A DNA stretch of 64,000 nt from an uncultured Actinomycetota bacterium (lineage in GTDB: Bacteria; Actinomycetota; Geothermincolia; Geothermincolales; RBG-13-55-18), in NCBI GenBank assembly GCA_964510515.1, contig CAZEAU010000008.1, forward strand, positions 5,379 to 69,378. Direction: 5' to 3'. Shown piece by piece: positions 6,950 to 60,196 of this stretch. The notes beneath the pieces were generated by a model. It saw only the letters and a list, made by a program, of their open reading frames with translations. It was not told where the DNA came from and searched no databases. Positions within the stretch are counted from its first letter, which is position 1, and every line of letters starts with the position of its first letter. A program made the translations under genes and the position numbers.

Positions 6950-6986
6950 CGCGGGCGGCGGGGAGGAAAGGGATACGGGGGTCCAC

Positions 6987-7823: not shown

Positions 7824-7833
7824 GTCGCCTGCC

Positions 7834-8967: not shown

Positions 8968-9057
8968 ATCGGATGCGCGCTTGGGATATAATGATGCCTG
9001 GCCTGTCGGGCTGAGAAAAGACCGGAGCGGTACCCGGATGAGAGGAAGGAGCCTGCT

Positions 9058-39735: not shown

Positions 39736-40110
39736 TCAGCGCGGGCCGCGGTCGAGCCTGCGTGAGGAGATGACATCCACGCCGCTGCCCAGTATGTCCC
39801 GGAGGATGACCTCGCCGTCCGCGACCGGGGCGCGCATCTCCACGCGGGCCAGCTCCCGCACCGCCTCCCCGATCATGGACTTGGGGATGGGAGAGGCGCT
39901 CACCACCGGGAGCAGGGGCAGGGCGCCCCCCTTGACCCGCACGGTGGTGCTCAGCGTGCGGCGGGGGTCGCGGAACTCCTCCTCGGCATATTTCACCCCC
40001 ACCTTGCACTCGGCCCCCGCGACCTCCAGGACCTCCCCGTCCTCCTCCGTGAGCTCCAGGCCGCAGCTCAGGGGGCAGTTGATGCATACGAAGGCGTGCT
40101 TTTTCCTCAT
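39736..40110 (-). CDS. DUF1667 domain protein
   Basis: FVCINCPLSC .. ECKVG Cys pattern and size typical of DUF1667 proteins found with GlpA-like oxidoreductases. Start overlaps the upstream stop. Confidence 0.7.
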   Translation of the reverse strand: MRKKHAFVCINCPLSCGLELTEEDGEVLEVAGAECKVGVKYAEEEFRDPRRTLSTTVRVKGGALPLLPVVSASPIPKSMIGEAVRELARVEMRAPVADGEVILRDILGSGVDVISSRRLDRGPR

Positions 40111-41384
40111 CTCCGCCTCCCGCCCTCGCCCTCCACGGCCCGCACCTCCACGGCGATGCGCGGCGGGGCCTCCGTCTCCCGCGGTCCCACCCTGGCGTGC
40201 ACCATCTCCGGGGGTCGCACCATCCTCGCCTTGCGGGAATAGACCTCCTCGCCGGAGGCCATCACCACCGCCCGCGCCTCCCTCTCCGGGCGCTCCACGC
40301 GGAAGTAGAAATCCGCCCCCTCCCCCAGGCCCTCCACCAGCTGCGGGAGCACGAATCTCACATTCCTGCCGGCCTCGACGCGCGCGCAGGGCCCCCGCCT
40401 GCGCCCGGCGAGCACGAACTCCGCCGCCCCCCTCCCCGCCGTCTCCGACGTGCGCGTCACCCAGTCCACGAGGTCGAAGACGCCCACCACGTTGCCGCAG
40501 GCGAAGATGCCCGGAACCGAGGTCTGCATGCGCTCGTCCACCACGGGGCCGGAGGTGACCGGGTCCAGCTCCACGCCGGCCTGCTTGGAGAGCTCGTTCT
40601 CGGGGATGAGCCCCACGGAGAGGAGCAGGGTGTCGCAGGGCACGCGCCGCCCGCTCTCCACGCGCGGCCTGAGGTTCTCGTCCACCGCGGCCACCGTCAC
40701 CGCCTCCACCCGCTTGCGGCCGTGGACGAAGATGACGGTATGGGAGAGGTGCAGGGGGATGTCGTAGTCGTGCAGGCATTGCACCACGTTGCGGGTGAGC
40801 CCCCCGGGCTGGTCCAGGAGCTCATAGACCCCCTCCACCTCCGCGCCCTCCAGGGTGAAGCGGCGGGCCATGATGAGCCCGATGTCCCCCGAGCCGAGTA
40901 TGACCACCCTGCGCCCCGGCATGACCCCGTCGATGTTGATGTCCCTCTGGGCGGCCCCGGCGCAGATGACCCCCGCGGGCCGGTACCCCGGTATCATCAC
41001 CTGGTGGCGCGTGCGCTCGCGGCACCCCATGGCCAGGATGACCGTCTCGGGCTCGAGCTCGAACACGCCCTCGCGCGAGTTGACCGCGGCGATGCGGCGG
41101 TCCGCCCCCATCTCCAGGACCATGGTGTCCAGCATAACCTCGATGCCCGCCCGCTCCACGCGGTCGATATAGCGCTGGGCGTACTGCGGCCCGGTGAGCA
41201 CCTCGCCGAAGACCATGGAGCCGAAGCCGTCGTGAATGCACTGCGGCAGTATGCCCCCCAGCTCGATATCCCTCTCGATGAGCACCACATCGCGCAGGCC
41301 CGCCTCGCGCGCCGCCAGCGCCGCCGCCAGCCCCGCGGGGCCCCCGCCCACCACCGCGCACTGCGGCTTTCCCGCCACCCTCAT
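40107..41384 (-). CDS. NAD(P)/FAD-dependent oxidoreductase (pyridine nucleotide-disulfide family)
   Basis: N-terminal VVGGGPAGLAAA and a second VVILGSGDIGL dinucleotide motif. Confidence 0.8.
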   Translation of the reverse strand: MRVAGKPQCAVVGGGPAGLAAALAAREAGLRDVVLIERDIELGGILPQCIHDGFGSMVFGEVLTGPQYAQRYIDRVERAGIEVMLDTMVLEMGADRRIAAVNSREGVFELEPETVILAMGCRERTRHQVMIPGYRPAGVICAGAAQRDINIDGVMPGRRVVILGSGDIGLIMARRFTLEGAEVEGVYELLDQPGGLTRNVVQCLHDYDIPLHLSHTVIFVHGRKRVEAVTVAAVDENLRPRVESGRRVPCDTLLLSVGLIPENELSKQAGVELDPVTSGPVVDERMQTSVPGIFACGNVVGVFDLVDWVTRTSETAGRGAAEFVLAGRRRGPCARVEAGRNVRFVLPQLVEGLGEGADFYFRVERPEREARAVVMASGEEVYSRKARMVRPPEMVHARVGPRETEAPPRIAVEVRAVEGEGGRRR

Positions 41385-42937
41385 CGCGCCCCGCCCCCCA
41401 GGAGCTCCTTGGCCATGCCCAAATAGAGCGGGGAGCCCTCCCCGTCCTTGGTCACCGCGGTGACCGGGATGCCCAGCTCCGCGGCGAGGATGGCGGCCAC
41501 GCGGTTGCCGCAGAAGCCGCCCTGGCAGCGCCCCATGCCGGTGCGCGTGCGCCGCTTCACCGCGTCCATGTTCACGGCGGGTATGAGGGAATGCACGGCG
41601 TTCACCACCTCCATCTCGGTCACCGTCTCACAGCGGCAGATAACGTGCCCCCAGCGGGGGTCCTCACGGATGAGGCGGTTGCGCTCCTTCCGCGGCAGCT
41701 CGGAGAACTTGGGCGCGGGCGGCGCCGGGGGGTCGAAGTCCGGGCGCGGCTCGCGCGGCAGGCCCAGCTCGTGCAGGATCTCCAGCGCCATCTCCGCGAT
41801 GGCGGGCGCGGAGGCGAGGCCGGGGGACTGTATGCCGGCCACGTTTACGAAACCGCGCACCTCCTCCGAGGCGGCGATGACGAAGTCCTCCTCCAGGGTG
41901 GGGGCGCGGATGCCGCTGAAGGCGGAGATGAGGGCGTCGCGGGGAAAGTTGGGGAGCAGGTAATGGAACCTCTCGAAGATCTCCTCTATCTCGTCGGCTC
42001 CGATGGAGGTGTCCTGCTTGTCCGCGGTCTCGATGGCCGTGGGGCCCAGCTGCAGGTTGCCCTCCGCGGTGGGCATGGCCCCCCCGCCCTTGCTCTGGGT
42101 GGTCCTCTGCCCCGGCAGGCGGAACTCCGCCACGCTGGCGCGCACGTATTCCGCCGTCACCTGGCGGTCGAAGAGCAGGGTGGCCCCCTTGCGGGGGTGG
42201 ATGACGAAACCCCCCGCGCCGGCCATGTCGGCCACCTCGTCGGCGAAAACGCCCGCGGCGTTGACCACCAGGGGGGTCGCTATCTCGCCCCGCCGGGTGA
42301 GCACCCCCCTCACCTCCCCCCCCGAGACCCGGAAGCCCGTGACCTCGGTGCCCAGGCAGACGCGCGCGCCGTTGACGACCGCGTGCTCGGCCAGGGCGAT
42401 GGTCAGCTTATAGGGGCTGATGAGGCCGTAAGTGGGGTCGAAGACCCCGGCCACCGCCTCGCGGGTCACGTTGGGCTCCATCAGGAAGACCTCGTCCCGG
42501 CTGAGCGCGCGCAGCCCGCCGATGCCCGCGCTCTCGCCGTAGGCGATGATGGCCTCGGGTATCTTGCGCGTGAGGACATCCTCGCGCTCGGGCTCGCCCA
42601 TGCCCGTCGTCCCGGGCGGGATGGTGCGCTGGGTGATGACCAGGAGCATGCCCTGCCGCTTCAGCTTCACCCCCAGGCCGCGCACGAAATCGTCGTAGAG
42701 GCGGTTGCCGCGCACGTTGAGCTTCTGCTTGAGGGTGCCGGCGTCCTCGCCGATGCCCGAGTGCACCTCGGCGTTGTTGGCCTTGCTGGCCCCGCAGGCC
42801 ACGTCGTCCTCCTTCTCCAGGACCACGATGTCCGAGACGTACTTGGACGCCTCCCTGGCGATGGAGCAGCCGATGACCCCGGCCCCCACGACGACCATGG
42901 CGGCACGCTCGGGGAGGGGTTGTCCTGCGATCGGCAA
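41381..42937 (-). CDS. FAD-dependent oxidoreductase, GlpA-like, with C-terminal BFD-like [2Fe-2S] domain
   Basis: [15 protein letters not shown] motif. C-terminal HVICRCETV .. [13 protein letters not shown] signature. Confidence 0.8.
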
Positions 42938-43188
42938 AGCCCGCGCCTCCCTTCCTCGTCGCCCTCGTTGGCGGCTTCCCGCGCCGCGGGCGGCCGCGCA
43001 TCTTCTTTTTCCTTATTCTACCCCCCGGCGCCGCGAGCGTCCCCCGCCTTTTGCCGGCCTGTCCGACCGCCGCGGGGGCGGGGCGGAGAGGGCGCCCAAC
43101 GCCCGCGGCGGCAGCGACCGCCGCGCAGCGCCCGCGCGGGTTGACGCGCGACATCGCCGCGGCCCGCCGGCTGCGCTATATTGAGGTC

Positions 43189-43560
43189 ATGAAGAAAAAG
43201 GCGCTTACGCGGGAGGAGGAGCGGGTCATCATCCACGGCGGCACGGAGATGCCTTTCGTGGGGGAATACACCGACCTCTTCGCCCCCGGCATCTACACGT
43301 GCAGGCAGTGCGGGGCGGCGCTTTACCGCTCGCAGGACAAGTTCCATTCCGGCTGCGGCTGGCCCAGCTTCGACGACGAGGTCCCGGGGGCGGTGGAGAG
43401 GAAGCCGGATCCCGACGGCATGAGGACGGAGATAGTCTGCGCCGCCTGCGGCGGGCACCTGGGACATCTTTTCCACGGCGAGGGCTTGACCCCCAAGAAT
43501 ACCCGCCACTGCGTCAACTCCGTCTCCATGAGGTTCATCCCCCATGACGACGCCGAATAG
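43189..43560 (+). CDS. msrB: Peptide-methionine (R)-S-oxide reductase
   Basis: CRQCGAALY .. CGWPSF .. [10 protein letters not shown] .. RHCVNS: both CxxC pairs and the catalytic Cys. Confidence 0.9.
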
Positions 43561-44074
43561 CCGCGAGACCATAGTCCTCGGCGGGGGATGCTTCTGGTGC
43601 ACCGAGGCGGTGCTGGGCACCGTGCCCGGGGTGCTCGGCGTGACCCCCGGTTACGCCGGCGGCCACGCTCCCGACCCTACCTACCGCCAGGTGTGCGGCG
43701 GGGAGACCGGCCATGCCGAGGTAGTGGAGGTGGAATACGACCCCACGGCGGTACGGCTGGAGGACATCCTGGAGGTCTTTTTCGCCACCCACGACCCCAC
43801 CTCCCTCAACCGCCAGGGCGCCGATGTGGGCACCCAGTACAGGTCCATCGTCCTCTACGATTCGCCGCGCCAGAAGGAGGCGGTGGAGAGGTTCATCGCC
43901 GGCATCGCCGGGAAATACGACCGCCGGGTCGTCACCGAGGTGAGGGAGCTGGAGAGGTTCTATCCCGCGGAGGAATGCCACCGGCGCTACTACGCCAGGA
44001 ACCGGGACCAGCCCTACTGCCGCGCCGTCATCTCCCCCAAGCTGGCCGCGCTGCGGCGCGGGCGCCCCGGCTGA
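43544..44074 (+). CDS. msrA: Peptide-methionine (S)-S-oxide reductase
   Basis: GGGCFWC active-site motif near the N-terminus. Overlaps msrB by 17 nt. Confidence 0.9.
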
Positions 44075-44098: not shown

Positions 44099-45061
44099 TC
44101 ACCTGCCGAAGCGGATGGCGAACCTCACGTTCCTGTGCGCCCTGTCGGCGGCTTCCCGGACCAGGACGTCCTCGTCGGCCAGGGTCTCTTCCAGCGCCTG
44201 CAGCGACCGCTCGTCCTTGAGTATCCCCAGGGACTTTACCGCCCCCAGGCGGACGTAGCGGTTCTCGTCCCCCAGCACCGCGATGAGCTCCGGGACCGCG
44301 TTGCGGTCGCCGATGACCCCCAACGCCTCCGCAGCCTTCCACCTCACGTGCGGGTGACCGTCGCGCAGCGCCGCCATCAGCGAGCCCACCGCCCTGCGGT
44401 CGCCTATCCTGCCCAGGGCGGTGGCCGCCCTCCACTTGGAGCGCAGGGTGCCGCTCTCCAGCTCCTCCATGAGCAACCCGACCGCCTGCGAGCCCATGAG
44501 CTCGCAGGCCTCCAGCGCCCCCCAGCGCACGCGCAGGCGTTCGTCGTCCAGGGAGCCCACCAGGGACCTTATCGCCGGCTGCCCCATCTTGACCAGGGCG
44601 TCCAGCGCCCGCTTGCGCACGCGCAGACTTTTATCGTCCATGGCGTCGATAAGGGGCCTGACCGCGGGGTAGCCCATGATGGCCAGGGACTTGGAGGCGA
44701 TCCAGCGCACGTTGACGTCGTTGTCCTTGAGGATCTCGATCAGGGGGGGTATGGCCCTCGCATCCCGCATCTTCCCCAACACCCCCGCGGCCTCGGCCCG
44801 GGTGTACTTGTTCTCGGCATCCAGGGCTTCGAGCAGGTAGTCGGCCACGGATTCCCCCATGTCCAGCAGAGAATCCGCGGCCGCCCACCTCACGCGCTCA
44901 TGCTTGTCCGAGAGGACGCCGATGAGCGCCCTGGCGGCGCTGCGGCTCTTGTGCCTGCCCAGCTCCTTCGCCGCCCTGAGGCGGATTCCGGGGTCCTCAT
45001 CCTCCAGGTCCTTCATCAGCTCCTGGGTGCGGTCCTCCTTCATGATGTTGAACGGGTTCAT
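44099..45061 (-). CDS. HEAT-repeat (PBS-lyase type) protein, paralog of 28532-29518
   Basis: Same VRW.AA.ALG repeat architecture. ATG 45061 after GGAGGGGAGG. Confidence 0.8.
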   Translation of the reverse strand: MNPFNIMKEDRTQELMKDLEDEDPGIRLRAAKELGRHKSRSAARALIGVLSDKHERVRWAAADSLLDMGESVADYLLEALDAENKYTRAEAAGVLGKMRDARAIPPLIEILKDNDVNVRWIASKSLAIMGYPAVRPLIDAMDDKSLRVRKRALDALVKMGQPAIRSLVGSLDDERLRVRWGALEACELMGSQAVGLLMEELESGTLRSKWRAATALGRIGDRRAVGSLMAALRDGHPHVRWKAAEALGVIGDRNAVPELIAVLGDENRYVRLGAVKSLGILKDERSLQALEETLADEDVLVREAADRAHRNVRFAIRFGR

Positions 45062-45338
45062 GTCAAACACGTCCAGCTTTCCTCCCCTCCGCTCTTCCGC
45101 ACAAAAAACGCCCCGCGAGGGGCCTCGAACCCTTGCCTGCGTCCGCATCATGACCCTGGTCCTTGCCTGCGCCCACATTATAACTCTAACAGAAGGGTTC
45201 CCCCGCGCGGGAGAGGACAAACAAGGAGCGCACGGGGGTCTTCCCACGGAGCACTCGTCTCCGGCGCGCCCCGCCTCGCCGCGCCCAGGAAGGTCGTGGG
45301 GGGCTTGGGGGCGGCGGGGCGGGTGCTACAATGTGTAA

Positions 45339-48684: not shown

Positions 48685-49944
48685 TCAATGGTCGCAGACA
48701 TTGTCGCCCAACTCCAGGGAACCGGCGACATATTCCTTCACCGCCCGCAGGGGCTCGATGGCCGGCGCGCCGCAGACCACCCTCACCCCGCTCTGGGCGA
48801 ATATCTGCTGGGCCCTCGCCCCCATGCCTCCGGCGATCACCGTCTTCACGCCCTTTTCCGCCAGCCAGCGCGGCAGCAGCCCGGGCTCGTGCGGCGGGGC
48901 GTTGCACACCTCCTTGACCGCCGGCTCTCCTCCGTCGACGGCCTGCACCAGGGTGAATTTCTCGCAGTGCCCGAAGTGCGCACACAACAGGCCATCCTGG
49001 GTGGGAACCGCGTATATCTCCATGCCTTCCTCCTCGCCTTCTTTCGCTCCTCCGGGGCTTTCGCCCGCGCCCGCCGCGGCGCTCTCCGTTTTTTCGCCGC
49101 CCGAGGTCAGGGCCACCACCCTGTCCACCATGCCGTCGAGTATGGGAGCCACTGCGGGCAGGTCGCGGTAATGGCCCTTCTTGGCCCCGCCGCGATCCGC
49201 CCAGGCCGCGAACTCCGCGTCCAGGGGAAGGGAGGCCAGCAGCTCCACCTGCATCTTCTCCGTCATCTCCGCGGCCCCGCCACTCCCGAAGATGTCCACG
49301 CTCTCCCCGCAGTGAGGGCAGACGAGGCCGCTCATGTTCTCCACCACCCCCAGCATGCGCATGCCGATGCGGCGGCAGAAAACGATGGACTTGCGCACGT
49401 CCGCTATGGCCAGTTCCTGGGGCGTGGTCACCACCAGCCCCCACGCATCCGGTATCAGCTGCGCCACGCTGAGCGGCTCGTCTCCGGTGCCGGGGGGGGA
49501 GTCTATGACCAGGTAATCGAGTTCGCCCCAGTGGATATCCTCCATGAACTGCCTGATGGCCGTCATCTTCAGGGGGCCCCTCCAGATGACCGCGCTGTCA
49601 TTATCTTCCATGAACAGTCCGATGGATATCACCTTGAGGTTGCCGGCCACGCTGAAGGGGAAGATCCCGCTCTCATCGCCGCTGACCCTCTCGCCCACCA
49701 GCCCGAATATCACCGGTATGCTGGGGCCGTGGAAATCCACGTCCATGACCCCCACCTTGTAGCCGCGCTCCGCCAGGCCCAGGGCCAGGGACGCCGCCAC
49801 CGAGCTCTTGCCCACCCCGCCTTTTCCGCTGAGCACCATGATTTTATTCTTAACACCCGCGAAATTCGGATGCTGCGACGGCTTCGCCTGTTCTCCACAG
49901 TCTCCTTTACAATCTCCTTTACATGCTGTCACTTTATCTCGCAT
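48685..49944 (-). CDS. Mrp/NBP35-family P-loop ATPase fused to NifX/NifB-like (Nitro_FeMo-Co) domain
   Basis: SGKGGVGKSS Walker A, CPHCG pair, then a C-terminal about 110-aa dinitrogenase FeMo-cofactor-binding-like fold (KTVIAGGMGARAQQIF). Confidence 0.85.
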   Translation of the reverse strand: MRDKVTACKGDCKGDCGEQAKPSQHPNFAGVKNKIMVLSGKGGVGKSSVAASLALGLAERGYKVGVMDVDFHGPSIPVIFGLVGERVSGDESGIFPFSVAGNLKVISIGLFMEDNDSAVIWRGPLKMTAIRQFMEDIHWGELDYLVIDSPPGTGDEPLSVAQLIPDAWGLVVTTPQELAIADVRKSIVFCRRIGMRMLGVVENMSGLVCPHCGESVDIFGSGGAAEMTEKMQVELLASLPLDAEFAAWADRGGAKKGHYRDLPAVAPILDGMVDRVVALTSGGEKTESAAAGAGESPGGAKEGEEEGMEIYAVPTQDGLLCAHFGHCEKFTLVQAVDGGEPAVKEVCNAPPHEPGLLPRWLAEKGVKTVIAGGMGARAQQIFAQSGVRVVCGAPAIEPLRAVKEYVAGSLELGDNVCDH

Positions 49945-49972: not shown

Positions 49973-50383
49973 CTACTCGCCGTCCCCGCAGCGCTGGTCC
50001 CGCTTGGGCCGGCGGATGCGGTCCGGGTTCTCCTTGAGCTCGCCCTTTAAGTAACAGGCCAGCGCCTCCTGCGTCAATTCCTCGTCCGTGGCGATGGGGA
50101 GCACGTCCCTGCGCAGCATCCCCACGTAGGCATTCTCTCCCATGCCCCCGCAGATGACCACGCGCACGTCCGGGAGGAGCTTCTCCAGCAGCTCCCAGCA
50201 GCCCGCCTGGGTATCCTCCTCTCCCCTCGCACATTCCATGCGGTTCACCCGGAACTCTTCGTCGGTGACCTTGCCTTTCGTCACCGTATAGACGGCGAAA
50301 AGCGGCGCCGCGCCGAAATGGCATGCTATCACCTTGCCGTTCTCGGTGGCCACCGCGACCTTGTGCTCCTGGTGGAGGATCAT
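49973..50383 (-). CDS. NifX/NifB-like (dinitrogenase FeMo-cofactor biosynthesis domain) protein
   Basis: KVAVATENGKV .. HFG .. VVICGGMGENA pattern. Confidence 0.8.
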   Translation of the reverse strand: MILHQEHKVAVATENGKVIACHFGAAPLFAVYTVTKGKVTDEEFRVNRMECARGEEDTQAGCWELLEKLLPDVRVVICGGMGENAYVGMLRRDVLPIATDEELTQEALACYLKGELKENPDRIRRPKRDQRCGDGE

Positions 50384-50578
50384 CGCCTTCCCCTCCCAGC
50401 GCTCTTCAGCCTGCGCCATTTCGGCTCTACCCACAGGTAAACGCCAAGGAGCGCCGAGACGAGGCCGGAGTATATGTGCAGCTTTCTCAGAGTTTTTCTC
50501 CTCGGCATCATGCCTCTCATCCTCCAGCCCTCGAGGGGGTCTGCAGGGCGCCCCGACAGTTAATTATAGTCCTTATAT

Positions 50579-50696
50579 AGCATATGTCCAGTAACAAGAT
50601 CATGCTCCTCACGCTCGCATTTCATCATCTCATACACGATGCTTTACACATGGTTTACACTAGTATAATATATTTATGGGCATATGCCTAGTAATG
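50579..50696. promoter_or_regulatory. Divergent AT-rich promoter region with two 18-bp direct repeats around CATATG cores plus -35/-10-like boxes
   Basis: AGCATATGTCCAGTAACA (50579-50596) and GGCATATGCCTAGTAATG (50679-50696). TTTACA (50643) and TATAAT (50664) lie between them. About 40% GC. Confidence 0.4.
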
Positions 50697-50738
50697 AAGG
50701 CGCGGGGAGCGCCTGACGCGGATGTGGAGGTGAGACGG

Positions 50739-50921
50739 ATGGCATGGCTGGGAAGAGGACGCGGAAGCGGAAGGCCCGCGGGTGGCCGCGGTGCCGCCGG
50801 AACCGCTGTATGCCGCTGCCCCAAGTGCGGGCACAGCGAGCCGCACACCAGGGGCGTCCCTTGCTCCAGGAAGAGCTGCCCCAAGTGCGGAACGCGCATG
50901 GTGGGGGCGAACTGCGGTTGA
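50739..50921 (+). CDS. Small Gly/Arg-rich, Cys-rich protein (60 aa)
   Basis: ATG 8 nt after GGAGGTGA. MAWLGRGRGSGRPAGGRGAAG then CRCPKCGH .. CSRKSCPKCG, a two-CPKCG zinc-knuckle-like arrangement. Confidence 0.5.
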   Translation: MAWLGRGRGSGRPAGGRGAAGTAVCRCPKCGHSEPHTRGVPCSRKSCPKCGTRMVGANCG

Positions 50922-50983
50922 GAGAGCGCCGCGAGGCGCGGTCATGGCACAGGAGATTGACGCATTGAGGAGAGGAGAATGAC

Positions 50984-51532
50984 ATGAAGGTAGCCATATC
51001 ATCTACGGGACCCGACTTGACGGGCAACGTGGACCCCCGTTTCGGCCGCTGCGCCTACTTTATCTTCTACGACACCGATACGGGAAACTGGGAGGCGGTG
51101 CCCAACGCCAACCGTGACGCCGCCGGCGGGGCGGGCATCCGCACCGCCCAGTCCGTGGTGGAGAAGGGCGCGGAGGCCGTGCTCACGGGCAATATCGGCC
51201 CCAACGCCATGCAGGTGCTCTCGGGGCAGGTCAAGGTGTACACGGGCTTTTTCGGCACCATCGAGGAGGCTCTGCAGGCGCTGAAAACGGGCGGCCTCAC
51301 CGACACGACCTCGCCCACGGTCCAGGACCACGCCGGCCTGGGCGGCGGAGGCGCCGCCGGTCCCGGCACCGGCATGCCGGGCGGAGGCATGGGCATGGGC
51401 GGAGGCATGGGCATGGGCGGAGGCATGGGCATGGGCGGAGGCATGGGCCGCGGCATGGGCGGAGGCATGGGCCGCGGTGGAGGCCGCGGTGGAGGCCGCG
51501 GCAGGGGCGGTAGAGGTGGGGGGCGTTGGTAA
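50984..51532 (+). CDS. NifX/NifB-like domain protein with C-terminal Gly/Met/Arg low-complexity tail
   Basis: MKVAISSTG .. RFGRCAYFIFYD .. AVLTGNIGPNA core. Tail is (GGGMGM)n then (GRGG)n, encoded by a 21-bp DNA tandem repeat at 51383-51480. Confidence 0.8.
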   Translation: MKVAISSTGPDLTGNVDPRFGRCAYFIFYDTDTGNWEAVPNANRDAAGGAGIRTAQSVVEKGAEAVLTGNIGPNAMQVLSGQVKVYTGFFGTIEEALQALKTGGLTDTTSPTVQDHAGLGGGGAAGPGTGMPGGGMGMGGGMGMGGGMGMGGGMGRGMGGGMGRGGGRGGGRGRGGRGGGRW

Positions 51533-52386
51533 TCACAGTCGCCGCCGGCAAGGGCGGGACCGGCAAGACCCTGGTGGCGGTGAACCTGGCCCTTTCCCTG
51601 CACCGGGCGGGGGTGAAGACGCTGCTCGCGGACGCCGACGTGGAGGAGCCCAACGCTCACCTTTTCATCAGGCCCTCCATCACCAGCCGCGAGGACGTCA
51701 CCATAGCCATACCGCGCATCGACGAGGAGGTCTGCGACCGCTGCGGTGAATGCTCCTCCTTCTGCGCCTTCGGGGCGCTGGCCACCACGCCCGCGCGGGT
51801 CATCCTCTTCGACGACCTCTGCCACGGTTGCGGGGGATGCACGCTGGTATGCCCCCTCGGCGCCATCAGCGAGGAGCCGCGGCTCATCGGGGCCATCGAG
51901 CGGGGACGCAGCGCCGAGGGCCTGGACTTCATGCACGGGATCCTGGAGATAGGCGAGCCCATGGCCAGCCCCATTATCGCCGCCATCAAGGAGCGCCTGG
52001 ACCCCGCGGCCGTGAACATCGTCGATTGCGGGCCGGGAACGGGCTGCGCCGCCATGACCGCGGTGCAGGGCTCGGATGTGTGTATCATGGTCACCGAGCC
52101 CACCCCCTTCGGCCTGCACGACCTGCTCATGGCGGTGAAGATGGCCGAGACGCTCGGGGTGCCCTCGCTGGTGGTGGTGAACAAAGACGCGCCGGGCAAC
52201 ACCGAGGTGAGGGACTTCTGCGCCGAGCACGGCCTGGAGATAGCGCTCTCCATACCCTTCTCCATGGAGACGGCGCGGCTCACCTCGAGCGGCGTCAACC
52301 TGGTCGACAGCGAAAAGGACTGGCAGAGGACGTTCTATTCCCTCTACGAGAGGGTATCCCCCATGGTCTCCAGCGGAGGTGCCTGA
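51526..52386 (+). CDS. MinD/ParA-type P-loop ATPase with inserted 4Fe-4S ferredoxin domain (COG1149-like)
   Basis: AAGKGGTGKT deviant Walker A. CDRCGECSSFC and CHGCGGCTLVCP ferredoxin motifs. TTG start. Confidence 0.85.
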   Translation: MVITVAAGKGGTGKTLVAVNLALSLHRAGVKTLLADADVEEPNAHLFIRPSITSREDVTIAIPRIDEEVCDRCGECSSFCAFGALATTPARVILFDDLCHGCGGCTLVCPLGAISEEPRLIGAIERGRSAEGLDFMHGILEIGEPMASPIIAAIKERLDPAAVNIVDCGPGTGCAAMTAVQGSDVCIMVTEPTPFGLHDLLMAVKMAETLGVPSLVVVNKDAPGNTEVRDFCAEHGLEIALSIPFSMETARLTSSGVNLVDSEKDWQRTFYSLYERVSPMVSSGGA

Positions 52387-52387
52387 G

Positions 52388-53266
52388 ATGAAACAACTGG
52401 TCATCCTCAGCGGCAAGGGCGGGACGGGAAAGACCACGGTCACCGCCTCCCTGGCGCAGGCCTTAAAACCGGTGATGCTGGCCGACTGCGACGTGGAGGC
52501 GCCCAACCTGCACCTCCTGCTCTCCCTGAAAACGGAGAAGTCCTACGCCCTGCGGGTCTCGCGCAAGGCGAGGATAGACCCTGAGCTGTGCACCTCCTGC
52601 GGCCTCTGCGAGGAGCACTGCCGCTTTGGAGCCGTCGTCGCCTCCGACCCCTACAGCATCGACGTATTCAGCTGCGAGGGCTGCGGGGTCTGCGGCCACG
52701 TGTGCCCGGAGAAGGCCGTCGACTTCTTCGAGAGCGACGGGGCACAGGTCTATATCGGCACCACGCCCTACGGGCCCATGGTCGGGGCGGAGCTCGCCAT
52801 GGGCGAGGAAGCCTCGGGCAAGGTGGTGTCGCAGGTGCGGATGGAGGCCCAGGCGATGGCCCATGAGGCCGGGCTACCGCTCATCATCGTGGACGGCTCG
52901 CCGGGCACGGGATGCCCGGTGATCGCCTCCCTGAGCGGCGCGGACCTGGCCCTCATCGTCACCGAGCCCTCGCTTTCGGGCCTGCACGACCTGGAGAGGA
53001 TACTGCAGGTGGCGAAGCACTTCGGCATCCCCACCATGGTGTGCATCAACAAATGCGACATCGTGCCCGAGCTGGCGGACCGTATCAGGCGGAGATGCGG
53101 GGAGCTGGGCATAGAGGTTGCCGCGCAGATACCCTTCAGCGAAGAGGTGGTGGAGGCGCTGCGCGCCGGGCGTCCGCCCCTGGGAAACGTGCCGCAGCGG
53201 GTGGAGGAGCCCCTGCGGCGCCTGGCCGAAGCGGTCGTGGCGCACACGGCGGTAGCCGCCAATTGA
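52388..53266 (+). CDS. Second MinD-type ATPase with ferredoxin insert (paralog)
   Basis: SGKGGTGKTT. CTSCGLCEEHC and CEGCGVCGHVCP. ATG 52388 after AGCGGAGGTG. Confidence 0.85.
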   Translation: MKQLVILSGKGGTGKTTVTASLAQALKPVMLADCDVEAPNLHLLLSLKTEKSYALRVSRKARIDPELCTSCGLCEEHCRFGAVVASDPYSIDVFSCEGCGVCGHVCPEKAVDFFESDGAQVYIGTTPYGPMVGAELAMGEEASGKVVSQVRMEAQAMAHEAGLPLIIVDGSPGTGCPVIASLSGADLALIVTEPSLSGLHDLERILQVAKHFGIPTMVCINKCDIVPELADRIRRRCGELGIEVAAQIPFSEEVVEALRAGRPPLGNVPQRVEEPLRRLAEAVVAHTAVAAN

Positions 53267-53451
53267 GAAGCGCGGTCACGCGGGGCCGGAGGCGGGGCGG
53301 CGGAGGTGACAAATGCCCGCCGTTGCCATATAAAAGAGGCGAGGGAGGTGGGCTCTTGACCGCACCCGCCGATCCCGGGCCGCCGGGGGAGGCGCCCCGC
53401 ACGTAACGCCAGGGGCAGGAGGAGAACAGCGCGCATAAAGGAAGTGAGCAA

Positions 53452-53850
53452 TTGGCCAGGCCCGTCAAGCCCAAGCTGGTGGGGTGGGCGCCCCGCACGG
53501 ATTACTTCAAACCCAGGGGCATACCCCTTGCCCAGCTCGAGGAGGTCAGACTGAGCGTGGAGGAGCTGGAGTCCCTGCGCCTGGTGGACCTGGAGGGCAT
53601 GTATCAGGAGGACGCCGCCCGGGAGATGGGCGTCTCGCGCCAGACGGTGCAGCGCATGATCGCCGAGGCCCGGGCCAAGGTTATCGGAGCCCTGGTTACC
53701 GGCCGGGCCCTGCGCATCGAGGGGGGGAGCTACATCCTCCGCGAGGGCGCGGGCCAGTACCGCTGCGGCCGCTGCGGCGACGCCTTCCCCTTCCGCCAGG
53801 GGCGCAAGGGGCGGGGGTGGAAGTGCCCCACCTGCGATTCCGGCGAATGA
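53452..53850 (+). CDS. DUF134-family predicted DNA-binding protein with C-terminal zinc ribbon
   Basis: YFKPRGIPL .. VEELESLRLVDLEGMYQEDAAREMGVSRQTVQRMIAEARAKV sigma-70-region-4-like HTH. CGRCG..CPTC ribbon. TTG start. Confidence 0.75.
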   Translation: MARPVKPKLVGWAPRTDYFKPRGIPLAQLEEVRLSVEELESLRLVDLEGMYQEDAAREMGVSRQTVQRMIAEARAKVIGALVTGRALRIEGGSYILREGAGQYRCGRCGDAFPFRQGRKGRGWKCPTCDSGE

Positions 53851-54082
53851 CGGCGGGTGAGCCGCCCTGGCGGGATATCGCCCGCCGCCCCATAGTCATC
53901 ATGCGCTCCCCCCATACCCGCGGCCCGGGCACCCCCATGCGGCCCGAGGGGGCCGGGTGCGGTTCGCTGCTTGGCTTAACCTTGCCAAACCGCCCCTTGC
54001 GCACCCCGATATGCGGCAGAGCGACGGTGCTTCCCCGCCGCTTGAGGTATGGTATTAGAAAGCCCGGGGGAAAGGTGCGAGC

Positions 54083-54808
54083 ATGTTAGCGCAGAGCATA
54101 GTGTCCCAGGCCATGCGGGCGGGCGGGGGACTTCGCCTGCACGAAGCGGTGGTCGGCCTGGGTTTCACCCTGGTGAGCCTGGAGGGCGGCGCCTGCGGCC
54201 TCGCCTATACCCTGCGCGACGAGCTGGGGCGCGGCTGCGACGCTTTCACGCAAGCGGGGAGCCTGGTGGGCAGGGAGGCAGGAGAGGCCCTGGAATGGAT
54301 GGGGAGGGGCTCGGTCGTCGCCTCCGCCGTCGGCCTCGCCGTGGCCAACGCCCTGCTGCCGCCGCCCGCGGAGGCCTTGGCCACGGACCTCATGGATATG
54401 CTTTCCCTGCGGCCCGGGGAGCGCGTGGTCACGGTGGGGAGGTTCCGCCCCCTGGAGCCGAGGCTGAAAAAGAGGGGGGTGGCCCTGGAGGCCGTCGAGC
54501 GGGGAGACCCGCTGCAGCCCCTGCGGGGATGCGACGTGGCCCTCGTCACCGCCACCGCCATCATCAACGGAACCCTTGAGGACATCCTCCCCGCGACCGC
54601 GGGAGCCCGGGAGGTGGTCGTCCTCGGACCCAGCACCCCCTGCGCCCCCGCGGCTTTCGCCGGAACCGCCGTCACCCTCCTCGCCGGCTCGGCCGTGGCC
54701 GACCGGGAGCGGGCGCGGGCGGTGGTGCTCGAGGGCGGAGGCACGCAGACCCTGGGCAAGTCGCTGCACAGGTGGACGCTGCGCGTGAGCGAGGCGAGGC
54801 GGGGATGA
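54083..54808 (+). CDS. DUF4213/DUF364-type Rossmann-like protein (putative metal-chelation domain)
   Basis: GFTLVSLEGGACGLAYTL N-terminal block and the central glycine-rich fold typical of the family. Confidence 0.6.
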   Translation: MLAQSIVSQAMRAGGGLRLHEAVVGLGFTLVSLEGGACGLAYTLRDELGRGCDAFTQAGSLVGREAGEALEWMGRGSVVASAVGLAVANALLPPPAEALATDLMDMLSLRPGERVVTVGRFRPLEPRLKKRGVALEAVERGDPLQPLRGCDVALVTATAIINGTLEDILPATAGAREVVVLGPSTPCAPAAFAGTAVTLLAGSAVADRERARAVVLEGGGTQTLGKSLHRWTLRVSEARRG

Positions 54809-56007
54809 AAAGGACCGAGCGGGCGGCCGCCCTCTCCGTCGTCGTCACCACCCTCCTGGGCGGGGGCATGATCGCCGTCGCCGCTGTCTCGGGCAGCGTG
54901 TCCCTGGTCGCCGAGGGCATACACACCATGACCGACAGCGTCACCTCGCTGGCCCTCCTCATCGGCCTGCGCCTCTCCGAGCGCCACAGCGAGACCTTCC
55001 CCTTCGGCCTCTATAAGCTGGAGAACCTGGTGGCCACGGCCATCGGCGTCCTCATCCTGGTCGGCGCCTACGAGCTGGGCTCCGAGTCCATCCGCCATCT
55101 CGGCGAAGAGCCGCGCGCCCTGGAGCACGAATGGCTGATGATGGCGGTGATGGCGGTGAGCATACTCTGCATAGGAGCCCTGGCCTGGTACAAGAACAAG
55201 GTCGCCCGCGAGGAGAACTCCCCCGGGCTGCGGGCGGACGCGCGCCACTCCATGAGCGACCTCGCCGCGGCGGTGGCCGTGCTGGTGGGTATCGGCCTGC
55301 ACATGGCGGGCGTGCCCCGGGCGGACTCCGTCGCCGCCCTGGTGGTGGTGGCCTTCCTCGCCTGGGCGGGGATAAACGTCACCCTCAACGGGGTGAAGGT
55401 GCTCCTCGACGCCTCGGTGGAGAAGGAGGTGCTCTTCCAGGCGCGGGAGATAGCGCAGGCCCATCACGGGGTCAAGGAGGTCCTGCATGTGGAGGGGAGG
55501 AACTCGGGCAGCTACCGCTTCCTCAACCTCGTCCTCGTGCCCCGCAGCCGGAACCTGGACCTCGCCGACCACGTCGCCGAGGAGGTGCGGGACAGCATCT
55601 CCCGGGGCATCCCCAAGGTGGATCGGGTGAACATCAACCTGCGCACCGAGGCAAGGGAAAGCATGCGCGGCGCCGTCATGCTGGAGGCGGACGGCGCGAC
55701 CGTGTCCGGCCATTTCGGCGACGCCCCGGCCTTCGCCCTGCTCGACTTCTCCCTCCCTGGCGCGGGGACCGTCTCCCGGGAAATGCTGTTGAACCCCTTC
55801 ACCGACCTCTCCCGGGGCAAGGGGGTCAAGGTGGCGGAGTTCCTGGCCCAGCAGGGCGTGGACGTCGTGGTGGTCAAGGAGGACCTGGAGGGCAAGGGCT
55901 CCCATTACGCCCTGGAGGCGCACGGGGTGCTCGAGCTGTTCCGGCCGGAGCTGAAGAGCCTGGAGGACGCCGAGAGGGAGCTGGCCGACTTCGTGCGCGG
56001 CCATTAA
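54805..56007 (+). CDS. Cation-diffusion-facilitator transporter fused to C-terminal NifX/NifB-like domain
   Basis: 6 TM with HTMTDS and HSMSD metal-site motifs, a cytoplasmic CDF C-domain, then an about 100-aa NifX-like fold (HFGDAPAFALLDF .. GVDVVVV). Confidence 0.8.
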   Translation: MKRTERAAALSVVVTTLLGGGMIAVAAVSGSVSLVAEGIHTMTDSVTSLALLIGLRLSERHSETFPFGLYKLENLVATAIGVLILVGAYELGSESIRHLGEEPRALEHEWLMMAVMAVSILCIGALAWYKNKVAREENSPGLRADARHSMSDLAAAVAVLVGIGLHMAGVPRADSVAALVVVAFLAWAGINVTLNGVKVLLDASVEKEVLFQAREIAQAHHGVKEVLHVEGRNSGSYRFLNLVLVPRSRNLDLADHVAEEVRDSISRGIPKVDRVNINLRTEARESMRGAVMLEADGATVSGHFGDAPAFALLDFSLPGAGTVSREMLLNPFTDLSRGKGVKVAEFLAQQGVDVVVVKEDLEGKGSHYALEAHGVLELFRPELKSLEDAERELADFVRGH

Positions 56008-56044: not shown

Positions 56045-56812
56045 ATGATGCATACATCACACCTGGAAGGCATGGCTTTCACCGCGGGGCGCTGGCCCCT
56101 GGACCCAGGCCTGCCCACCGCCGTCTTCATCCACGGCTCCGGGGGGGCGGGTGTGCTCTGGCACGCGCAGGCGCAAGAGCTGGCGGAGGAGATGAACACG
56201 CTGGCCCTCGACCTCCCGGGACATGGCGCGAGCGGCGGCGAGGGCATGGAGCGCGTGGAGGATTACGCCGCGCGCGTGGACGCCTTCATCGCCTCGCTGG
56301 GGGCGCCGCGCCCCATACCCTGCGGCCTGAGCATCGGCGGGGCCATCGTCCTGCAGCTGCTGCTGGACCACCCGGGCCGGTACGCGGCGGGCATCGTGGT
56401 CAACTCAGGCGCCAGGCTGCGGGTGCTGCCCATGATATTTGAGGCCGTGGAGAAGGATCCGCGGGCCTTTGCCGAGGCCGCCCCCGCCTTCAGCATCGCG
56501 GAGAAGACCGACCCCTCCGTCATCGCTCCCCTCCTGGAAGCGATGGCCGCATGCCCCCCCGAGGTCACCCTGGGCGACTTCCGCGCCTGCGACTCCTTCG
56601 ACGTCATGGAGAGGCTGGGCGAGATAGAGGCGCCCGTCCTCGTCCTCACCGCCGCGGAGGACAAGATGACCCCCGTCAAGTACGGCGCCTTTCTCGCGGA
56701 GCGCATCGCGCGCTCCACCCTGCTCAACATCGAGGGAGCCGGCCACCTCTCCCCCATGGAGAAGCCCCGCGAGGTGGGCGAGGCCATAGCGGAGTTCGTG
56801 CGCTCGCTGTGA
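56045..56812 (+). CDS. Alpha/beta hydrolase
   Basis: HGSGG oxyanion region, nucleophile elbow GLSIGG, C-terminal GAGH. Confidence 0.8.
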   Translation: MMHTSHLEGMAFTAGRWPLDPGLPTAVFIHGSGGAGVLWHAQAQELAEEMNTLALDLPGHGASGGEGMERVEDYAARVDAFIASLGAPRPIPCGLSIGGAIVLQLLLDHPGRYAAGIVVNSGARLRVLPMIFEAVEKDPRAFAEAAPAFSIAEKTDPSVIAPLLEAMAACPPEVTLGDFRACDSFDVMERLGEIEAPVLVLTAAEDKMTPVKYGAFLAERIARSTLLNIEGAGHLSPMEKPREVGEAIAEFVRSL

Positions 56813-56966
56813 GGCCCTCCCCGCACGGGAGAGGGACCACGCGTTCCCGCTCACCTATTCCCGGAAGGGTGCACCCGACTCCACGTGGGGAAAGGAGCCA
56901 CGCGGGCCACGCCGCCCACTCGTGTCATCCCCGGATGCTAGAATTATTCTAAAGGAGGCGGTCGGG

Positions 56967-58163
56967 ATGGCGGTGTATTCCCACTCAAGGCTGCAGACTT
57001 TCCAGAACTGCCCGCTGCAGTACAAGCTGCGATATATCGACCGGGTGAAGTCGGAGAGGCACGGCATCGAGGCCTTCATGGGCAGCATGGTGCACGAGGC
57101 TATGGAGAAACTCTACCGCGACCTCAGGGTGTCCAAACTCAACGAGCTGGAGGACCTGCTGGGCTTCTACCGCCAGAGCTGGGACAGCGCCTGGCACGAC
57201 GGCATCTTCATCGTCAAAAAGGACTACACGGCGCGCAACTACCGCGACACCGGCGAGCGCTGCATCCGCGACTACTACGAGCGCTGCTACCCCTTCGAGG
57301 ACGGCAGGACCCTGTGGCTGGAGGAGTGGGTGCGCATCCCCCTGGATTCGGGGGGCAAATACTCCATGACCGGGGTGGTGGACCGCCTGGTGGACAGGGG
57401 CGGCGGTGCCTACGAGATACACGACTACAAGACCTCCGCGAGCCTCCCCACCCAGAAGCAGGCGGACTCCGACCGTCAGCTGGCCCTCTATCAGCTGGCG
57501 GCGATGGAGGCCTTTCCCGATGCCCGCGAGATGAAGCTGGTGTGGCATTACCTGGCCTTCGACAAGGACATCGTCTCCGAGAGGAGCGAGGAGGACCTGC
57601 GGGAGCTGAAGCGCAGCACCATCGCCCTCATCGAGGTCGTGGAGGGGGCGCGGGAGTTCGAGCCCAGGGAGAGCGCCCTCTGCGCATGGTGCGATTATCC
57701 CCACCTTTGCCCGCTGCGCAGGCACCTCTTCGCGGTGCAGGACCTCGCACCCCGGGAGTTCAGCGAGGAGGACGGGGTCAGGCTGGCGGACAGGTACGTG
57801 GAGCTGAGGGGAAGGAAGAGGGAGCTGGAGGCGGAGCTGGAGGGGCTGCAGGAGGAGATAGCGGAGTACTGCGGGGCCAAGGACTACGCGACCCTGCGGG
57901 GGACGGAGCACATGCTGACGGTGAAGAGGGAGACGAGGCCGGCCTTCCCCAAATCCGGCAGCCAGGAGCGATCCGAGCTGGAGGAGCTCCTGAGAAAGCT
58001 GGGGCGCTGGGACGGCGCCGCGGCCCTCAATGCCGCCAAGCTGACCAAGACGCTGCGGGAGAGGAGCTGGCCGGAGAAGGAGCTGCGCGAGCTGGAGCGC
58101 TTCGCGACCTGGGAGGAGAGCGTCAGCATACGCCCCCGCAAGCTCAAGGACCAGGAGAGATAG
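56967..58163 (+). CDS. PD-(D/E)xK nuclease, Cas4/RecB-like with C-terminal Cys cluster
   Basis: D..EIHDYKT (D-ExK) core, QxxxY-like block, C-terminal CAWCDYPHLC. Start ATG 56967, 7 nt after AAAGGAGG. Confidence 0.7.
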   Translation: MAVYSHSRLQTFQNCPLQYKLRYIDRVKSERHGIEAFMGSMVHEAMEKLYRDLRVSKLNELEDLLGFYRQSWDSAWHDGIFIVKKDYTARNYRDTGERCIRDYYERCYPFEDGRTLWLEEWVRIPLDSGGKYSMTGVVDRLVDRGGGAYEIHDYKTSASLPTQKQADSDRQLALYQLAAMEAFPDAREMKLVWHYLAFDKDIVSERSEEDLRELKRSTIALIEVVEGAREFEPRESALCAWCDYPHLCPLRRHLFAVQDLAPREFSEEDGVRLADRYVELRGRKRELEAELEGLQEEIAEYCGAKDYATLRGTEHMLTVKRETRPAFPKSGSQERSELEELLRKLGRWDGAAALNAAKLTKTLRERSWPEKELRELERFATWEESVSIRPRKLKDQER

Positions 58164-58189: not shown

Positions 58190-59509
58190 TCAGATGATAG
58201 GCGCCACATTGGCCCGCGAGCCCTTGAGCTTCGCCGCGATGAGGAGGAAGAGGGAGCGCACGGGGTCAACCGGTGAGAGCTGCACCGTCTGGACTCGCAT
58301 CTGCCGGGACAGGCCGCCGATGCTTAGGGCCAGGTCATTGCATCCGGGGCTCATGGTCACGCGGCGCTTTCCCAGCCGCTTGCGCAGCGCCACGCCGTGC
58401 TCCTGTATGGCGCAGCTCCCCGCGATGTGCACGCGGCCCTCGAGGCCATCCACCACCTCCTTGCCTATGCCCTTCCCCATGAGCACGGTGAAGCCCCCTT
58501 TGCCCCCATGGTCGCGGTAGAGCAGCTCGATGATGGTCTCGGTGTTGCGGCGGCAACCCTCCTTGCAGCAGCGCTCCTCGCCCCTGATGATGGTCACATC
58601 GGGCGGGAAATCGTCCAGCAGCTCGCAGGTCAACTGCCGCTTGCGCTCCTCCAGGAGGGGCCGGTTGACGATGTCGATCTTCTCGATATCCCCCTGCCCA
58701 AAACCGGTGTCCGCGCAGAGCTTGAGATGCGCGACCTCCTGCAGGCCGAAGCCCATCAGCGCCGCGCCCACGACATCGGTGGCCAGCGCGTCCGGGCCCC
58801 CGATAAGTAGGTCGAAGGGCAACACGCAGCGCACGGCGTTGAAAACCGTCGGGTAGTGGCCGTGATCGGTGCCGACGAGCCCGTCGATAAGGGCGAAATC
58901 CGGGCGGATGACGCGGTAGATGTCGGCGAACTTCTGATGCAGTCGGTAGTTGTGGTTGGCGATGCGGCTCATCTGATGCACCAGCCCGAACTGATTCTTG
59001 ATGGAGAGCGTCACCTGGGACATGCTGTGGGTCTTGAGCTTGGGGATGGACACATAGAGGTTCTCCGCGCGCCTCTCTATGAGGCGCTCGTAGGCGAAGT
59101 CCGATATCTCCACAAACTCCTCCAGCGTCTCCAGAAACACCGGCACGGCCCCCGTCTCGTCCAGGTAAATGGGCACGGCCCCGGTCTCTTTGCACACGCG
59201 CTTGTAGCCGGTGCCCAGAAAGACCAGCCGGGTGAAGTTGGCCTGGGTGCTGTTCTCGATGACATAGACATCGCGCGCCCCGCAGGCCTGAAAGTAGAGG
59301 ATGGTCTGGCGCAGCACCTCGGGGTCGGTATAGACATTCGGCTCTGGGCCAACGCCGTTGACCTTGAGATAGACATCCCGGCTGGAGCGCAGCATGCTCT
59401 TCCCCCCGCCGAAATGCTCGAAGACCTCCCTCACGGCCGCGGCTATGCCCTGCCGGGTGTCCGCCAGCACGACCTCCGCTCTCGCGTCTGAAGCGCCTTC
59501 ACCGACCAT
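58190..59509 (-). CDS. DUF362 domain protein
   Basis: N-terminal block VVLADTRQGIAAAVREVFEHFGG .. YLKVNG typical of DUF362. C-terminal CCKEGC Cys motif. ATG 59509 after GGGAGGT. Confidence 0.65.
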   Translation of the reverse strand: MVGEGASDARAEVVLADTRQGIAAAVREVFEHFGGGKSMLRSSRDVYLKVNGVGPEPNVYTDPEVLRQTILYFQACGARDVYVIENSTQANFTRLVFLGTGYKRVCKETGAVPIYLDETGAVPVFLETLEEFVEISDFAYERLIERRAENLYVSIPKLKTHSMSQVTLSIKNQFGLVHQMSRIANHNYRLHQKFADIYRVIRPDFALIDGLVGTDHGHYPTVFNAVRCVLPFDLLIGGPDALATDVVGAALMGFGLQEVAHLKLCADTGFGQGDIEKIDIVNRPLLEERKRQLTCELLDDFPPDVTIIRGEERCCKEGCRRNTETIIELLYRDHGGKGGFTVLMGKGIGKEVVDGLEGRVHIAGSCAIQEHGVALRKRLGKRRVTMSPGCNDLALSIGGLSRQMRVQTVQLSPVDPVRSLFLLIAAKLKGSRANVAPII

Positions 59510-60196
59510 CGCCTTACCTCCCTCGCTGCCGCGCGCACGGCGGGGGCCGGCCCGCGGCCTCCCGCGGGGCATGCCGTCCCCGTGCCGCCCTCTCGCAGGA
59601 CATCTTGCTTCCTTTTTGGGCTCAAGCGGGCGCCGGGCCACGGCTCGCCATCTCGCCACGCGGCGGGCGCGCGCTCCCGAGCTCCGCCTGCGACCATCCA
59701 TATCATAGAATCGGGCCCGCGCGCATGTCCATCCGCGCGGGCCCCCATATCCACCGGTCGCCGCCGACGGCCGCATGCTGGAGGAGGATGCGTCGCCAGG
59801 AAGGGAAATGGCGGGTCCCCTGCGGGAATCGCGCGAAAACAGGGGCGGCAACATGGCCGAGTTGCTCAAGGGGCGGGGTCGCCCTGCCGAATGTAATAAC
59901 GTTGAGCGGGAGGGCCCGCGCCATGCGCCACGCCGCTTTTTGCGGAGCGAGAGGAGAGGGGCGCGCCGCGAGGTCGCCCGCCGGGGCGTTGCGTCAAAAC
60001 GGACAGGAAAACCTGGAAACGTATATGCCGAGCGGATATACCGAGCGAGCGCGAGGCCTCCATCCCGGCCCGAAGCGCCGGGGGGAGGAGGGCCTCTCCG
60101 CCCATGGCATCCGCTCGCGCGAGGTCAGGGAGACAAAGCCGGAAAGCCCCATTACATGTAGCACCGGACCGGCATGAGTTCACGGAGGTGGAGGGT

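Follow-up and report, generated by a model that had tools for sequence, protein, structure and literature searches.

A cation diffusion facilitator with an appended NifX-like domain, encoded in an orp-type gene cluster of an uncultured Actinomycetota bacterium

Cation diffusion facilitators (CDFs) are among the best-studied metal exporters, and a domain of the cofactor-carrier type is present in no solved or characterised member of this family. Here we describe a gene whose product combines the two. It lies in a stretch of 64,000 nucleotides from an uncultured Actinomycetota bacterium of the lineage RBG-13-55-18 (assembly GCA_964510515.1, contig CAZEAU010000008.1, positions 5,379 to 69,378 of the forward strand); this whole stretch is referred to as the window, and its own numbering is used throughout. 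The gene, here called CDF-NifX (54805-56007, plus strand), encodes a protein of three parts, namely a six-helix CDF core, a CDF cytoplasmic domain and a PF02579/IPR003731 domain, and is the last gene of an orp-type cluster. By its sequence the protein is assigned to a widespread and uncharacterised FieF/YiiP-like CDF subfamily of anaerobes, and in view of its orp-type neighbourhood a connection with metal-sulfide trafficking is credible.

On the transporter side, the closest described systems are FieF/YiiP of Escherichia coli (PDB 2qfi/3h90) and YiiP of Shewanella, which have in common with CDF-NifX the six helices, the tetrad of transport-site residues in transmembrane helices 2 and 5 (TM2 and TM5) and the alpha-beta-beta-alpha-beta cytoplasmic domain. 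A further reference is provided by MamB and MamM, an iron-linked CDF heterodimer, in which MamB has a tetrad similar to HD-HD. On the side of the appended domain, IPR003731 domains bind Fe-S, Mo-Cu-S or thioferrate species, and the orange protein (ORP) and IssA do so without cysteine ligation (PMC6345978, PMC5524996). MTH1175 was assigned to the IssA clade by Vaccaro et al. (PMC5524996), and homologues of Orp8, a free PF02579 protein, carry an S2MoS2CuS2MoS2 cluster (PMC6345978). Orp3 and Orp4 have been described as well, and Orp8 is purified together with them (PMC6345978); the role of the orange-protein complex is "still unclear" according to its investigators (PMC8359166). The fusion of the two domain types is not described in the searchable literature, where no paper names both domains, and the database name of its homologues is only "cation diffusion facilitator family transporter".

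The fusion gene is a single, uninterrupted open reading frame (ORF). With the ATG at 54805 as start, its product has 400 amino acids, and the frame ends with the TAA at 56005-56007; an alternative GTG start lies at 54772, and no internal stop is found in the frame from either start (54772/54805-56007, plus strand). The ATG shares the ATGA of 54805-54808 with the TGA of the upstream DUF4213/DUF364 gene, and the purine-rich GAGGCGAGG is located directly 5' of it. Pfam recognises Cation_efflux (PF01545) at residues 10-201 (E 1.4e-40, 139.7 bits against a cut-off of 26.6) and Nitro_FeMo-Co (PF02579) at residues 296-375 (38.5 bits against a gathering threshold of 26.3). ZT_dimer (PF16916), at residues 210-277, scores 25.8 bits, slightly below its cut-off of 26.7, and is recognised in all 69 of the 69 aligned family members. 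The general CDF model of NCBIfam, TIGR01297, reaches 176 bits against a cut-off of 82.35. In the AlphaFold2 model of the full-length protein, for which 69 homologues served as input (mean predicted local distance difference test score, pLDDT, 85.5), six long helices are followed by the alpha-beta-beta-alpha-beta domain, a linker of about 6 residues and a beta/alpha domain at residues 286-399.

A preliminary description of the locus, made from the DNA letters and their translations, had proposed a complete CDF core and cytoplasmic domain running on into a NifX/NifB-type fold, with a start that overlaps the DUF364 gene, and Pfam, NCBIfam, AlphaFold2 and the shared ATGA bear this out. It had also named a frameshift, or a stop lost in assembly, as the artefact that could have joined a CDF gene to a separate NifX-like gene. 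Four contigs, independently assembled from different sequencing runs, encode the identical 400-residue protein with the same neighbours, and the fusion architecture persists in homologues down to 33-37% identity; the artefact is therefore excluded, and the fusion is a genuine gene. In addition, its three parts use one common frame with uniform GC content at third codon positions (GC3 of 0.94, 0.94 and 0.95), the linker before the appended domain is only about 6 residues long, and more than 100 protein clusters show the same architecture. No point in support of a frameshift or lost stop was found, and we give this explanation practically no weight.

The six-helix membrane domain (residues 1-201; 54805-55407, plus strand), delimited by PF01545 and the AlphaFold2 helices, has its helices at residues 3-29, 32-59, 70-100, 109-137, 140-167 and 173-200. 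The predicted transport site A consists of H40 and D44 in TM2 and H148 and D152 in TM5, which align to D45, D49, H153 and D157 of E. coli YiiP, the first tetrad residue thus being His in the fusion protein and Asp in YiiP. D152 is invariant across the family, and the tetrad is intact, as HD-HD or DD-HD, in CDF-NifX and its single-copy relatives. The second site of YiiP lies in the TM2-TM3 loop; in the fusion protein its residues give way to FPxGLYKLEN (residues 65-74), an invariant and family-specific motif. A motif of the same kind, GRNSGxxRF, marks the cytoplasmic domain (residues 202-284; 55408-55656, plus strand), whose alpha-beta-beta-alpha-beta fold was identified with PF16916, AlphaFold2 and Foldseek. 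Among solved structures, E. coli FieF/YiiP is the nearest in sequence (E 1e-18), and by fold the best matches in Foldseek are YiiP and ZnT structures (about 285 columns, E down to 2.8e-14), the additional 116 residues at the C-terminus being found in no solved CDF. By analogy, the fusion protein very probably works as FieF/YiiP does, as a dimeric metal/proton antiporter. One group of relatives, from Anaerolineae and Chloroflexia (loci L026, L028, L056, L065, L066, L067, L072, L073 and L081, with L and P here denoting related loci and proteins), has a tetrad of H-D/E-H instead of H-D/H-D, a difference that points to another metal preference in these bacteria.

The specific CDF models of NCBIfam rank in the order MamB, MamM, MamV, FieF and MntE, with Cdf31, ZitB and DmeF well below them, and every one of them scores far under its own cut-off. 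By this ranking and these scores, the fusion protein belongs with the Fe/Zn/Mn branch of the CDFs and to none of the named equivalogs. FieF itself was rejected at 100.8 bits against 447 (NF007064) and 97.5 against 420 (NF050169). The same applies to MamB and MamM, the highest-scoring of the specific models, at 140 and 115 bits against 350 and with no mam genes among the neighbours annotated, an annotation that covered the stretch from 40 to 60 kb of the window. These two proteins lack an IPR003731 domain, and the locus has no magnetosome gene context; as an iron-linked heterodimer, they have a parallel in the tandem pairs among the relatives of the fusion described below. A MamB-like role, in which iron would be moved to an internal compartment or loaded onto an iron-sulfide deposit in the cytoplasm (thioferrate or IssA particles) instead of being exported from the cell, could draw on this top rank of MamB, on the IssA-like protein encoded in the same cluster and on a magnetosome protein of D. 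magneticus that carries a NifX/NifB-type domain (PMC4287615). We consider it very improbable, as 140 bits is far under the MamB cut-off, the annotated stretch contains no mam or mad genes, and IssA particles are cytoplasmic and without a bounding membrane (PMC5524996).

The appended PF02579/IPR003731 domain (residues 285-400; 55657-56004, plus strand) was identified with Pfam, sequence matches in the PDB, a model of the domain and Foldseek. It comprises 116 residues with no Cys, four non-conserved His and an isoelectric point (pI) of 4.8. Modelled alone, it reaches a pLDDT of 95.9, and its 11 best PDB matches in Foldseek all have the PF02579 fold, at TM-scores of 0.67-0.75. These structural matches include TM1816, ORP (2wfb, the second-best), PH0822, NifX (NifEN complex, 9ian_F), NafY (1p90), Ta1041m, TM1290 and MTH1175, and in the sequence search of the PDB MTH1175 was best (8e-5), followed by ORP (0.22). 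With ORP/Orp8 (2wfb), MTH1175 (1eo1), TM1816, PH0822 and the globular domain of IssA, the fold is shared at TM-scores of 0.73-0.75. Proteins of the ORP/MTH1175 type resemble the fused domain further in their two Gly-rich loops (here SRGKG at 336-340 and EGKG at 362-365), their low or zero Cys content and a similar gene cluster, but they are free and soluble, whereas the fused domain is tethered to a transporter. MrpORP (Orp9) has a comparable layout, being a metal-trafficking protein with a C-terminal IPR003731 domain that is encoded in an orp cluster. Its domain contains the Cys/His motifs CxHFGHCE and CDH and binds [3Fe-4S] (PMC6345978), whereas both motifs, and Cys altogether, are missing from the CDF-fused domain.

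Two more specific identities were considered and rejected for this domain. It shares Pfam family and fold with NifX, NafY and the C-terminal domain of NifB at a sequence identity of no more than 20%; the nifX (TIGR02663) and nifB (TIGR01290) models give no match to the fusion protein at E <= 0.01, and the annotated stretch from 40 to 60 kb contains no nif genes, so that it is no true NifX, NifB or NafY. Nor is it IssA, because the domain is directly followed by the C-terminus of the protein (residue 400), and the cationic Gly-rich tail that defines IssA is absent. Profile comparison with the three PF02579 domains encoded in the same cluster gave weak matches, the best being the IssA-like neighbour at 72% probability. 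Among 1.84 billion representatives the domain finds 196 matches at E <= 1e-3; about one third of the 150 matches listed are the C-terminus of proteins of about 400 residues, and many of the others listed are shorter sequences (fragments or free domains). The appended domain, which is of the ORP/MTH1175 (IssA-clade) type, forms a sequence subfamily of its own. The preliminary description had suggested that the transporter may pass a metal or a cluster to a cofactor carrier, or be gated by one. A domain that has no Cys, and in which no His is conserved either, is unlikely to ligate an Fe-S or FeMo-type cluster covalently.

The fusion is spread, as judged from its homologues, over at least six phyla and is common in anaerobes. 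In a scan of species-representative genomes for two family-specific peptide motifs, after which the stretches were confirmed, at least 595 stretches were found to encode relatives. The C-terminal domain is present in 102 of the 120 best protein clusters at 90% identity, and 78 of the 79 best loci encode the fusion, the remaining one having a single-chain double CDF. The domain pairing had been called rare in the preliminary description; these counts show that in nature it is not. The loci come from Actinomycetota, Thermodesulfobacteriota, Chloroflexota/Anaerolineae, Nitrospirota, Clostridia, Poribacteria, Myxococcota and one Methanotrichaceae archaeon, and the closest relatives among the 79 best loci are Actinomycetota (62-78% identity).

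The association with orp-type genes recurs among these relatives. Neighbours were counted within the fetched flank of the 62 loci that have no tandem paralogue. An Orp3/4-like ATPase pair, at a distance of 73-5275 bp from the fusion, is found in 19 of them, a free NifX-like gene near the fusion in 30 and a DUF364 gene, upstream and on the same strand, in 11 loci from three phyla; at least one of the three occurs in 42 of the 62. As DUF364 keeps this position in 11 loci, translational coupling of the fusion to the preceding DUF364 gene, which had been proposed from the overlap, is plausible. The order NifX-like gene, two ATPases, DUF364 and CDF-NifX was found again in a metagenome-assembled genome of Thermodesulfobacteriota (L031), and the order NifX-like gene, ATPase, ATPase and CDF-NifX in Nitrospirota (L050), Anaerolineae (L026) and Desulforhopalus (L077). 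A DUF134 gene is present in 5 related loci. Furthermore, a study of ANME-2a (anaerobic methanotrophic) archaea lists a separate CDF gene among genes for 4Fe-4S proteins, a NifX-family protein and a P-loop NTPase (PMC12622379).

Conservation of the appended domain also bears on the explanation that it is a structural add-on, i.e. an extra dimerisation or stability module without ligand or partner, in which case the orp neighbourhood would reflect shared anaerobic regulation. Only A290, A307, P331, L347 and G351 are conserved at 90% or more, these positions are mainly small or hydrophobic core residues, and conserved Cys, His or acidic ligand residues are absent. In addition, PF02579 is recognised at E <= 0.001 in only 47 of the 69 members, which indicates that the sequence of the domain drifts. 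All this would fit such a module. Against it, the full-length domain is retained in every lineage, over at least six phyla and down to 33% identity, and in both paralogues of the tandem pairs; both Gly-rich loops of the ORP/MTH1175 pocket are kept, and same-strand Orp3/4-like genes lie as close as 73-211 bp in several phyla. On balance we regard a purely structural role as unlikely.

In 17 of the 79 related loci (L007-L021, L034), mostly from Actinomycetota, two adjacent fusion paralogues occur, both with the NifX-like domain, as for example in L007 at 6750-7982 and 7986-9206. The transport site of the upstream copy is destroyed, with L/I/V/M-R-F/H-D replacing D/H-D-H-D, and that of the downstream copy is intact (DD-HD). 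From this pattern, the two copies appear to form an obligate heterodimer in which one subunit is dead, as in ZnT5/ZnT6. A further arrangement is seen in single-chain proteins of about 600 residues (P0015, P0016, P0018, P0019, P0021, P0025, P0029 and P0041; L075 at 7794-9674), which contain two complete CDF cores of the same subfamily in tandem and lack the NifX-like domain; the source of one of them is named as an uncultured Thiodictyon sp. Such a covalent double CDF is consistent with the idea of a heterodimer.

The cluster that ends with CDF-NifX contains MrpORP, two ATPases of the Orp3/Orp4 type, free PF02579 proteins and divergent operons, the features by which orp clusters have been defined (PMC6345978, PMC8359166). 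On the minus strand, the gene at 48685-49944 encodes an MrpORP (Orp9) equivalog with an Mrp/NBP35 P-loop domain and a PF02579 domain (NF041136, 491 bits against a cut-off of 450; Pfam), whose CxHFGHCE and CDH motifs agree with the published ones (PMC6345978), and the gene at 49973-50434 a stand-alone PF02579 protein with 6 Cys (Pfam E 5.1e-12). This occurrence of an MrpORP equivalog together with a 6-Cys PF02579 protein is in an apparent Actinomycetota genome. The divergent intergenic region at 50560-50690 holds sigma-70-like promoter matches on both strands (4 sites against 0.3 expected), which are consensus matches only. No gene for the sigma-54 activator OrpR is present in the gap 50434-50984, which holds only an 81-residue ORF (50676-50921, plus strand); in its place, the cluster includes a gene for a DUF134 helix-turn-helix protein (53452-53850, plus strand; PF02001, E 6.9e-23), a probable regulator. 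The reality of the 81-residue ORF, at the head of the plus-strand operon, is uncertain: it has an RG-rich stretch and two CPxCG zinc-ribbon motifs, its Pfam match is below threshold, and it failed a GC3-based coding filter that additionally required at least 80 codons.

Three further features complete the plus strand between this region and the fusion gene. The gene at 50984-51532 encodes an IssA/Orp8-like carrier (PF02579, Pfam E 3.1e-23) that has the IssA architecture of an IPR003731 domain and a long, Gly-rich cationic tail, with a Met content of the tail that is unusually high for the IssA/'IssX' architecture (PMC5524996). The tail has 72 residues, composed of (MGGG)n and then (RGGG)n, and the pI is 12. 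It could bind soft metals (Cu/Ag) and not thioferrate, methionine being a typical soft-metal ligand. Next are two overlapping genes for P-loop NTPases of the MinD/ParA type (51526-53266, plus strand; Pfam CbiA/ParA and Fer4), each with an inserted 2x[4Fe-4S] ferredoxin module as in Orp3/Orp4, and, downstream of the DUF134 gene, the gene for the DUF4213 and DUF364 protein (54083-54808, plus strand; Pfam). In a consensus scan, sigma-70-like promoter matches in the cluster were confined to the divergent gap at 50560-50690, and no plus-strand terminator was found from 50984 to 56007; these two results are weak indications of a single long plus-strand operon. The possibility that the DUF364/CDF pair has a promoter of its own in the 232-bp gap was rejected, as the consensus scan found none there, which is weak evidence. 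The gaps of the cluster contain no riboswitch or other RNA element of Rfam at E <= 1.

Downstream of CDF-NifX are genes for an alpha/beta hydrolase (56045-56812, plus strand), a protein of the PD-(D/E)XK nuclease family (56922-58163, plus strand) and a DUF362 protein (58190-59869, minus strand). All three stay with the fusion on an independently assembled contig (L001), the hydrolase also in L003 and L004, and no functional link of these downstream genes to the fusion was found. Further upstream (40107-42937, minus strand; 43051-44074, plus strand; 44099-45247, minus strand) there are ordinary redox genes, the set comprising a pyridine-nucleotide-disulfide oxidoreductase, a DAO-type FAD oxidoreductase with a BFD-like [2Fe-2S] domain, an MsrB/MsrA pair and a HEAT-repeat protein.

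Genes of the DUF364 type are found together with transporter genes for molybdate, tungstate and iron (PMC2954201; bioRxiv 10.1101/2024.03.05.583561), and the sole characterised DUF364 enzyme cyclises a derivative of S-adenosylmethionine (PMC12930334); this precedent hints at small-molecule chemistry and at nothing specific for this locus. One explanation is a Mo/W-Cu system, or one for another thiophilic metal, in which the fused domain would bind a Mo-Cu-sulfide-type cluster as ORP of D. gigas does, DUF364 would take part in molybdate or tungstate handling, and the CDF would export a partner cation (Cu, Zn or Co). The rank of ORP (2wfb) as second-best structural match, the Mo-Cu cluster of the Orp8 homologues, the transporter linkage of DUF364 and the Met-rich tail of the neighbouring carrier (50984-51532) would all suit it. 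However, CDFs transport divalent cations and not oxyanions, the core of the fusion is nearest to the FieF, MamB and MntE models, the cluster includes an Fe-S carrier (MrpORP) and Fe-S ATPases, and no mod or tup transporter gene occurs in the annotated stretch, so that this explanation, too, seems improbable to us.

The reading that we prefer, at a probability of roughly 0.45, is that CDF-NifX is a homodimeric Fe2+/Zn2+ exporter whose extra domain couples it to the Orp/IssA machinery. The homodimer would export a divalent metal in a proton-coupled manner, with Fe2+ as the most likely and Zn2+ as the second candidate, and the extra domain would sit at the cytoplasmic tip without a covalently bound cluster. 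Coupling could be brought about in two ways. The domain may dock to the Orp3/Orp4 ATPases, as free Orp8 does, or the pocket formed by its Gly-rich loops may hold an anionic metal-sulfide species non-covalently. In either case metal efflux would track the state of the cellular iron-sulfur pool, and the DUF364 protein would belong to the same pathway, where it might make or handle a small-molecule ligand.

Several observations weigh against this reading. The tetrad HD-HD, which is the classical one for Zn2+ as well, does not specify the metal. In the fused domain no ligand-binding residue is conserved, its acidic character (pI 4.8) disfavours the binding of anions, and its position relative to the transporter is uncertain in the model (predicted TM-score, pTM, 0.52). 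Finally, orp-type neighbours are found in only about half of the related loci, and the 17 loci with tandem pairs are without any orp-type neighbour in the fetched flank.

In a bolder version of the preferred reading, proteins of the CDF-NifX type would supply the membrane part that is missing from the anaerobe-specific Orp/IssA system. Their tethered IPR003731 domain would accept or sense an inorganic iron-sulfide species held by Orp3/Orp4/Orp8/MrpORP and gate the efflux of Fe2+ accordingly, the orange-protein complex would serve iron/sulfide homeostasis instead of cell division, and in many Actinomycetota the transporter would be an obligate heterodimer with one transport-dead subunit. Taken as a whole, this proposal is speculative, and we hold it to be rather doubtful.

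The fusion of a CDF with a NifX-like domain is common in anaerobes and rare only in the searchable literature. Its recurrent linkage to orp genes ties a transporter to the Orp complex and to the recently discovered iron-sulfur storage by thioferrate and IssA. In the tandem pairs, with their one dead site, bacteria would have a counterpart of the ZnT5/ZnT6-type heterodimer. If the functional link to the Orp/IssA machinery is true, CDF-NifX would offer an experimental handle on how strict anaerobes balance free Fe2+, sulfide and the assembly of Fe-S clusters.

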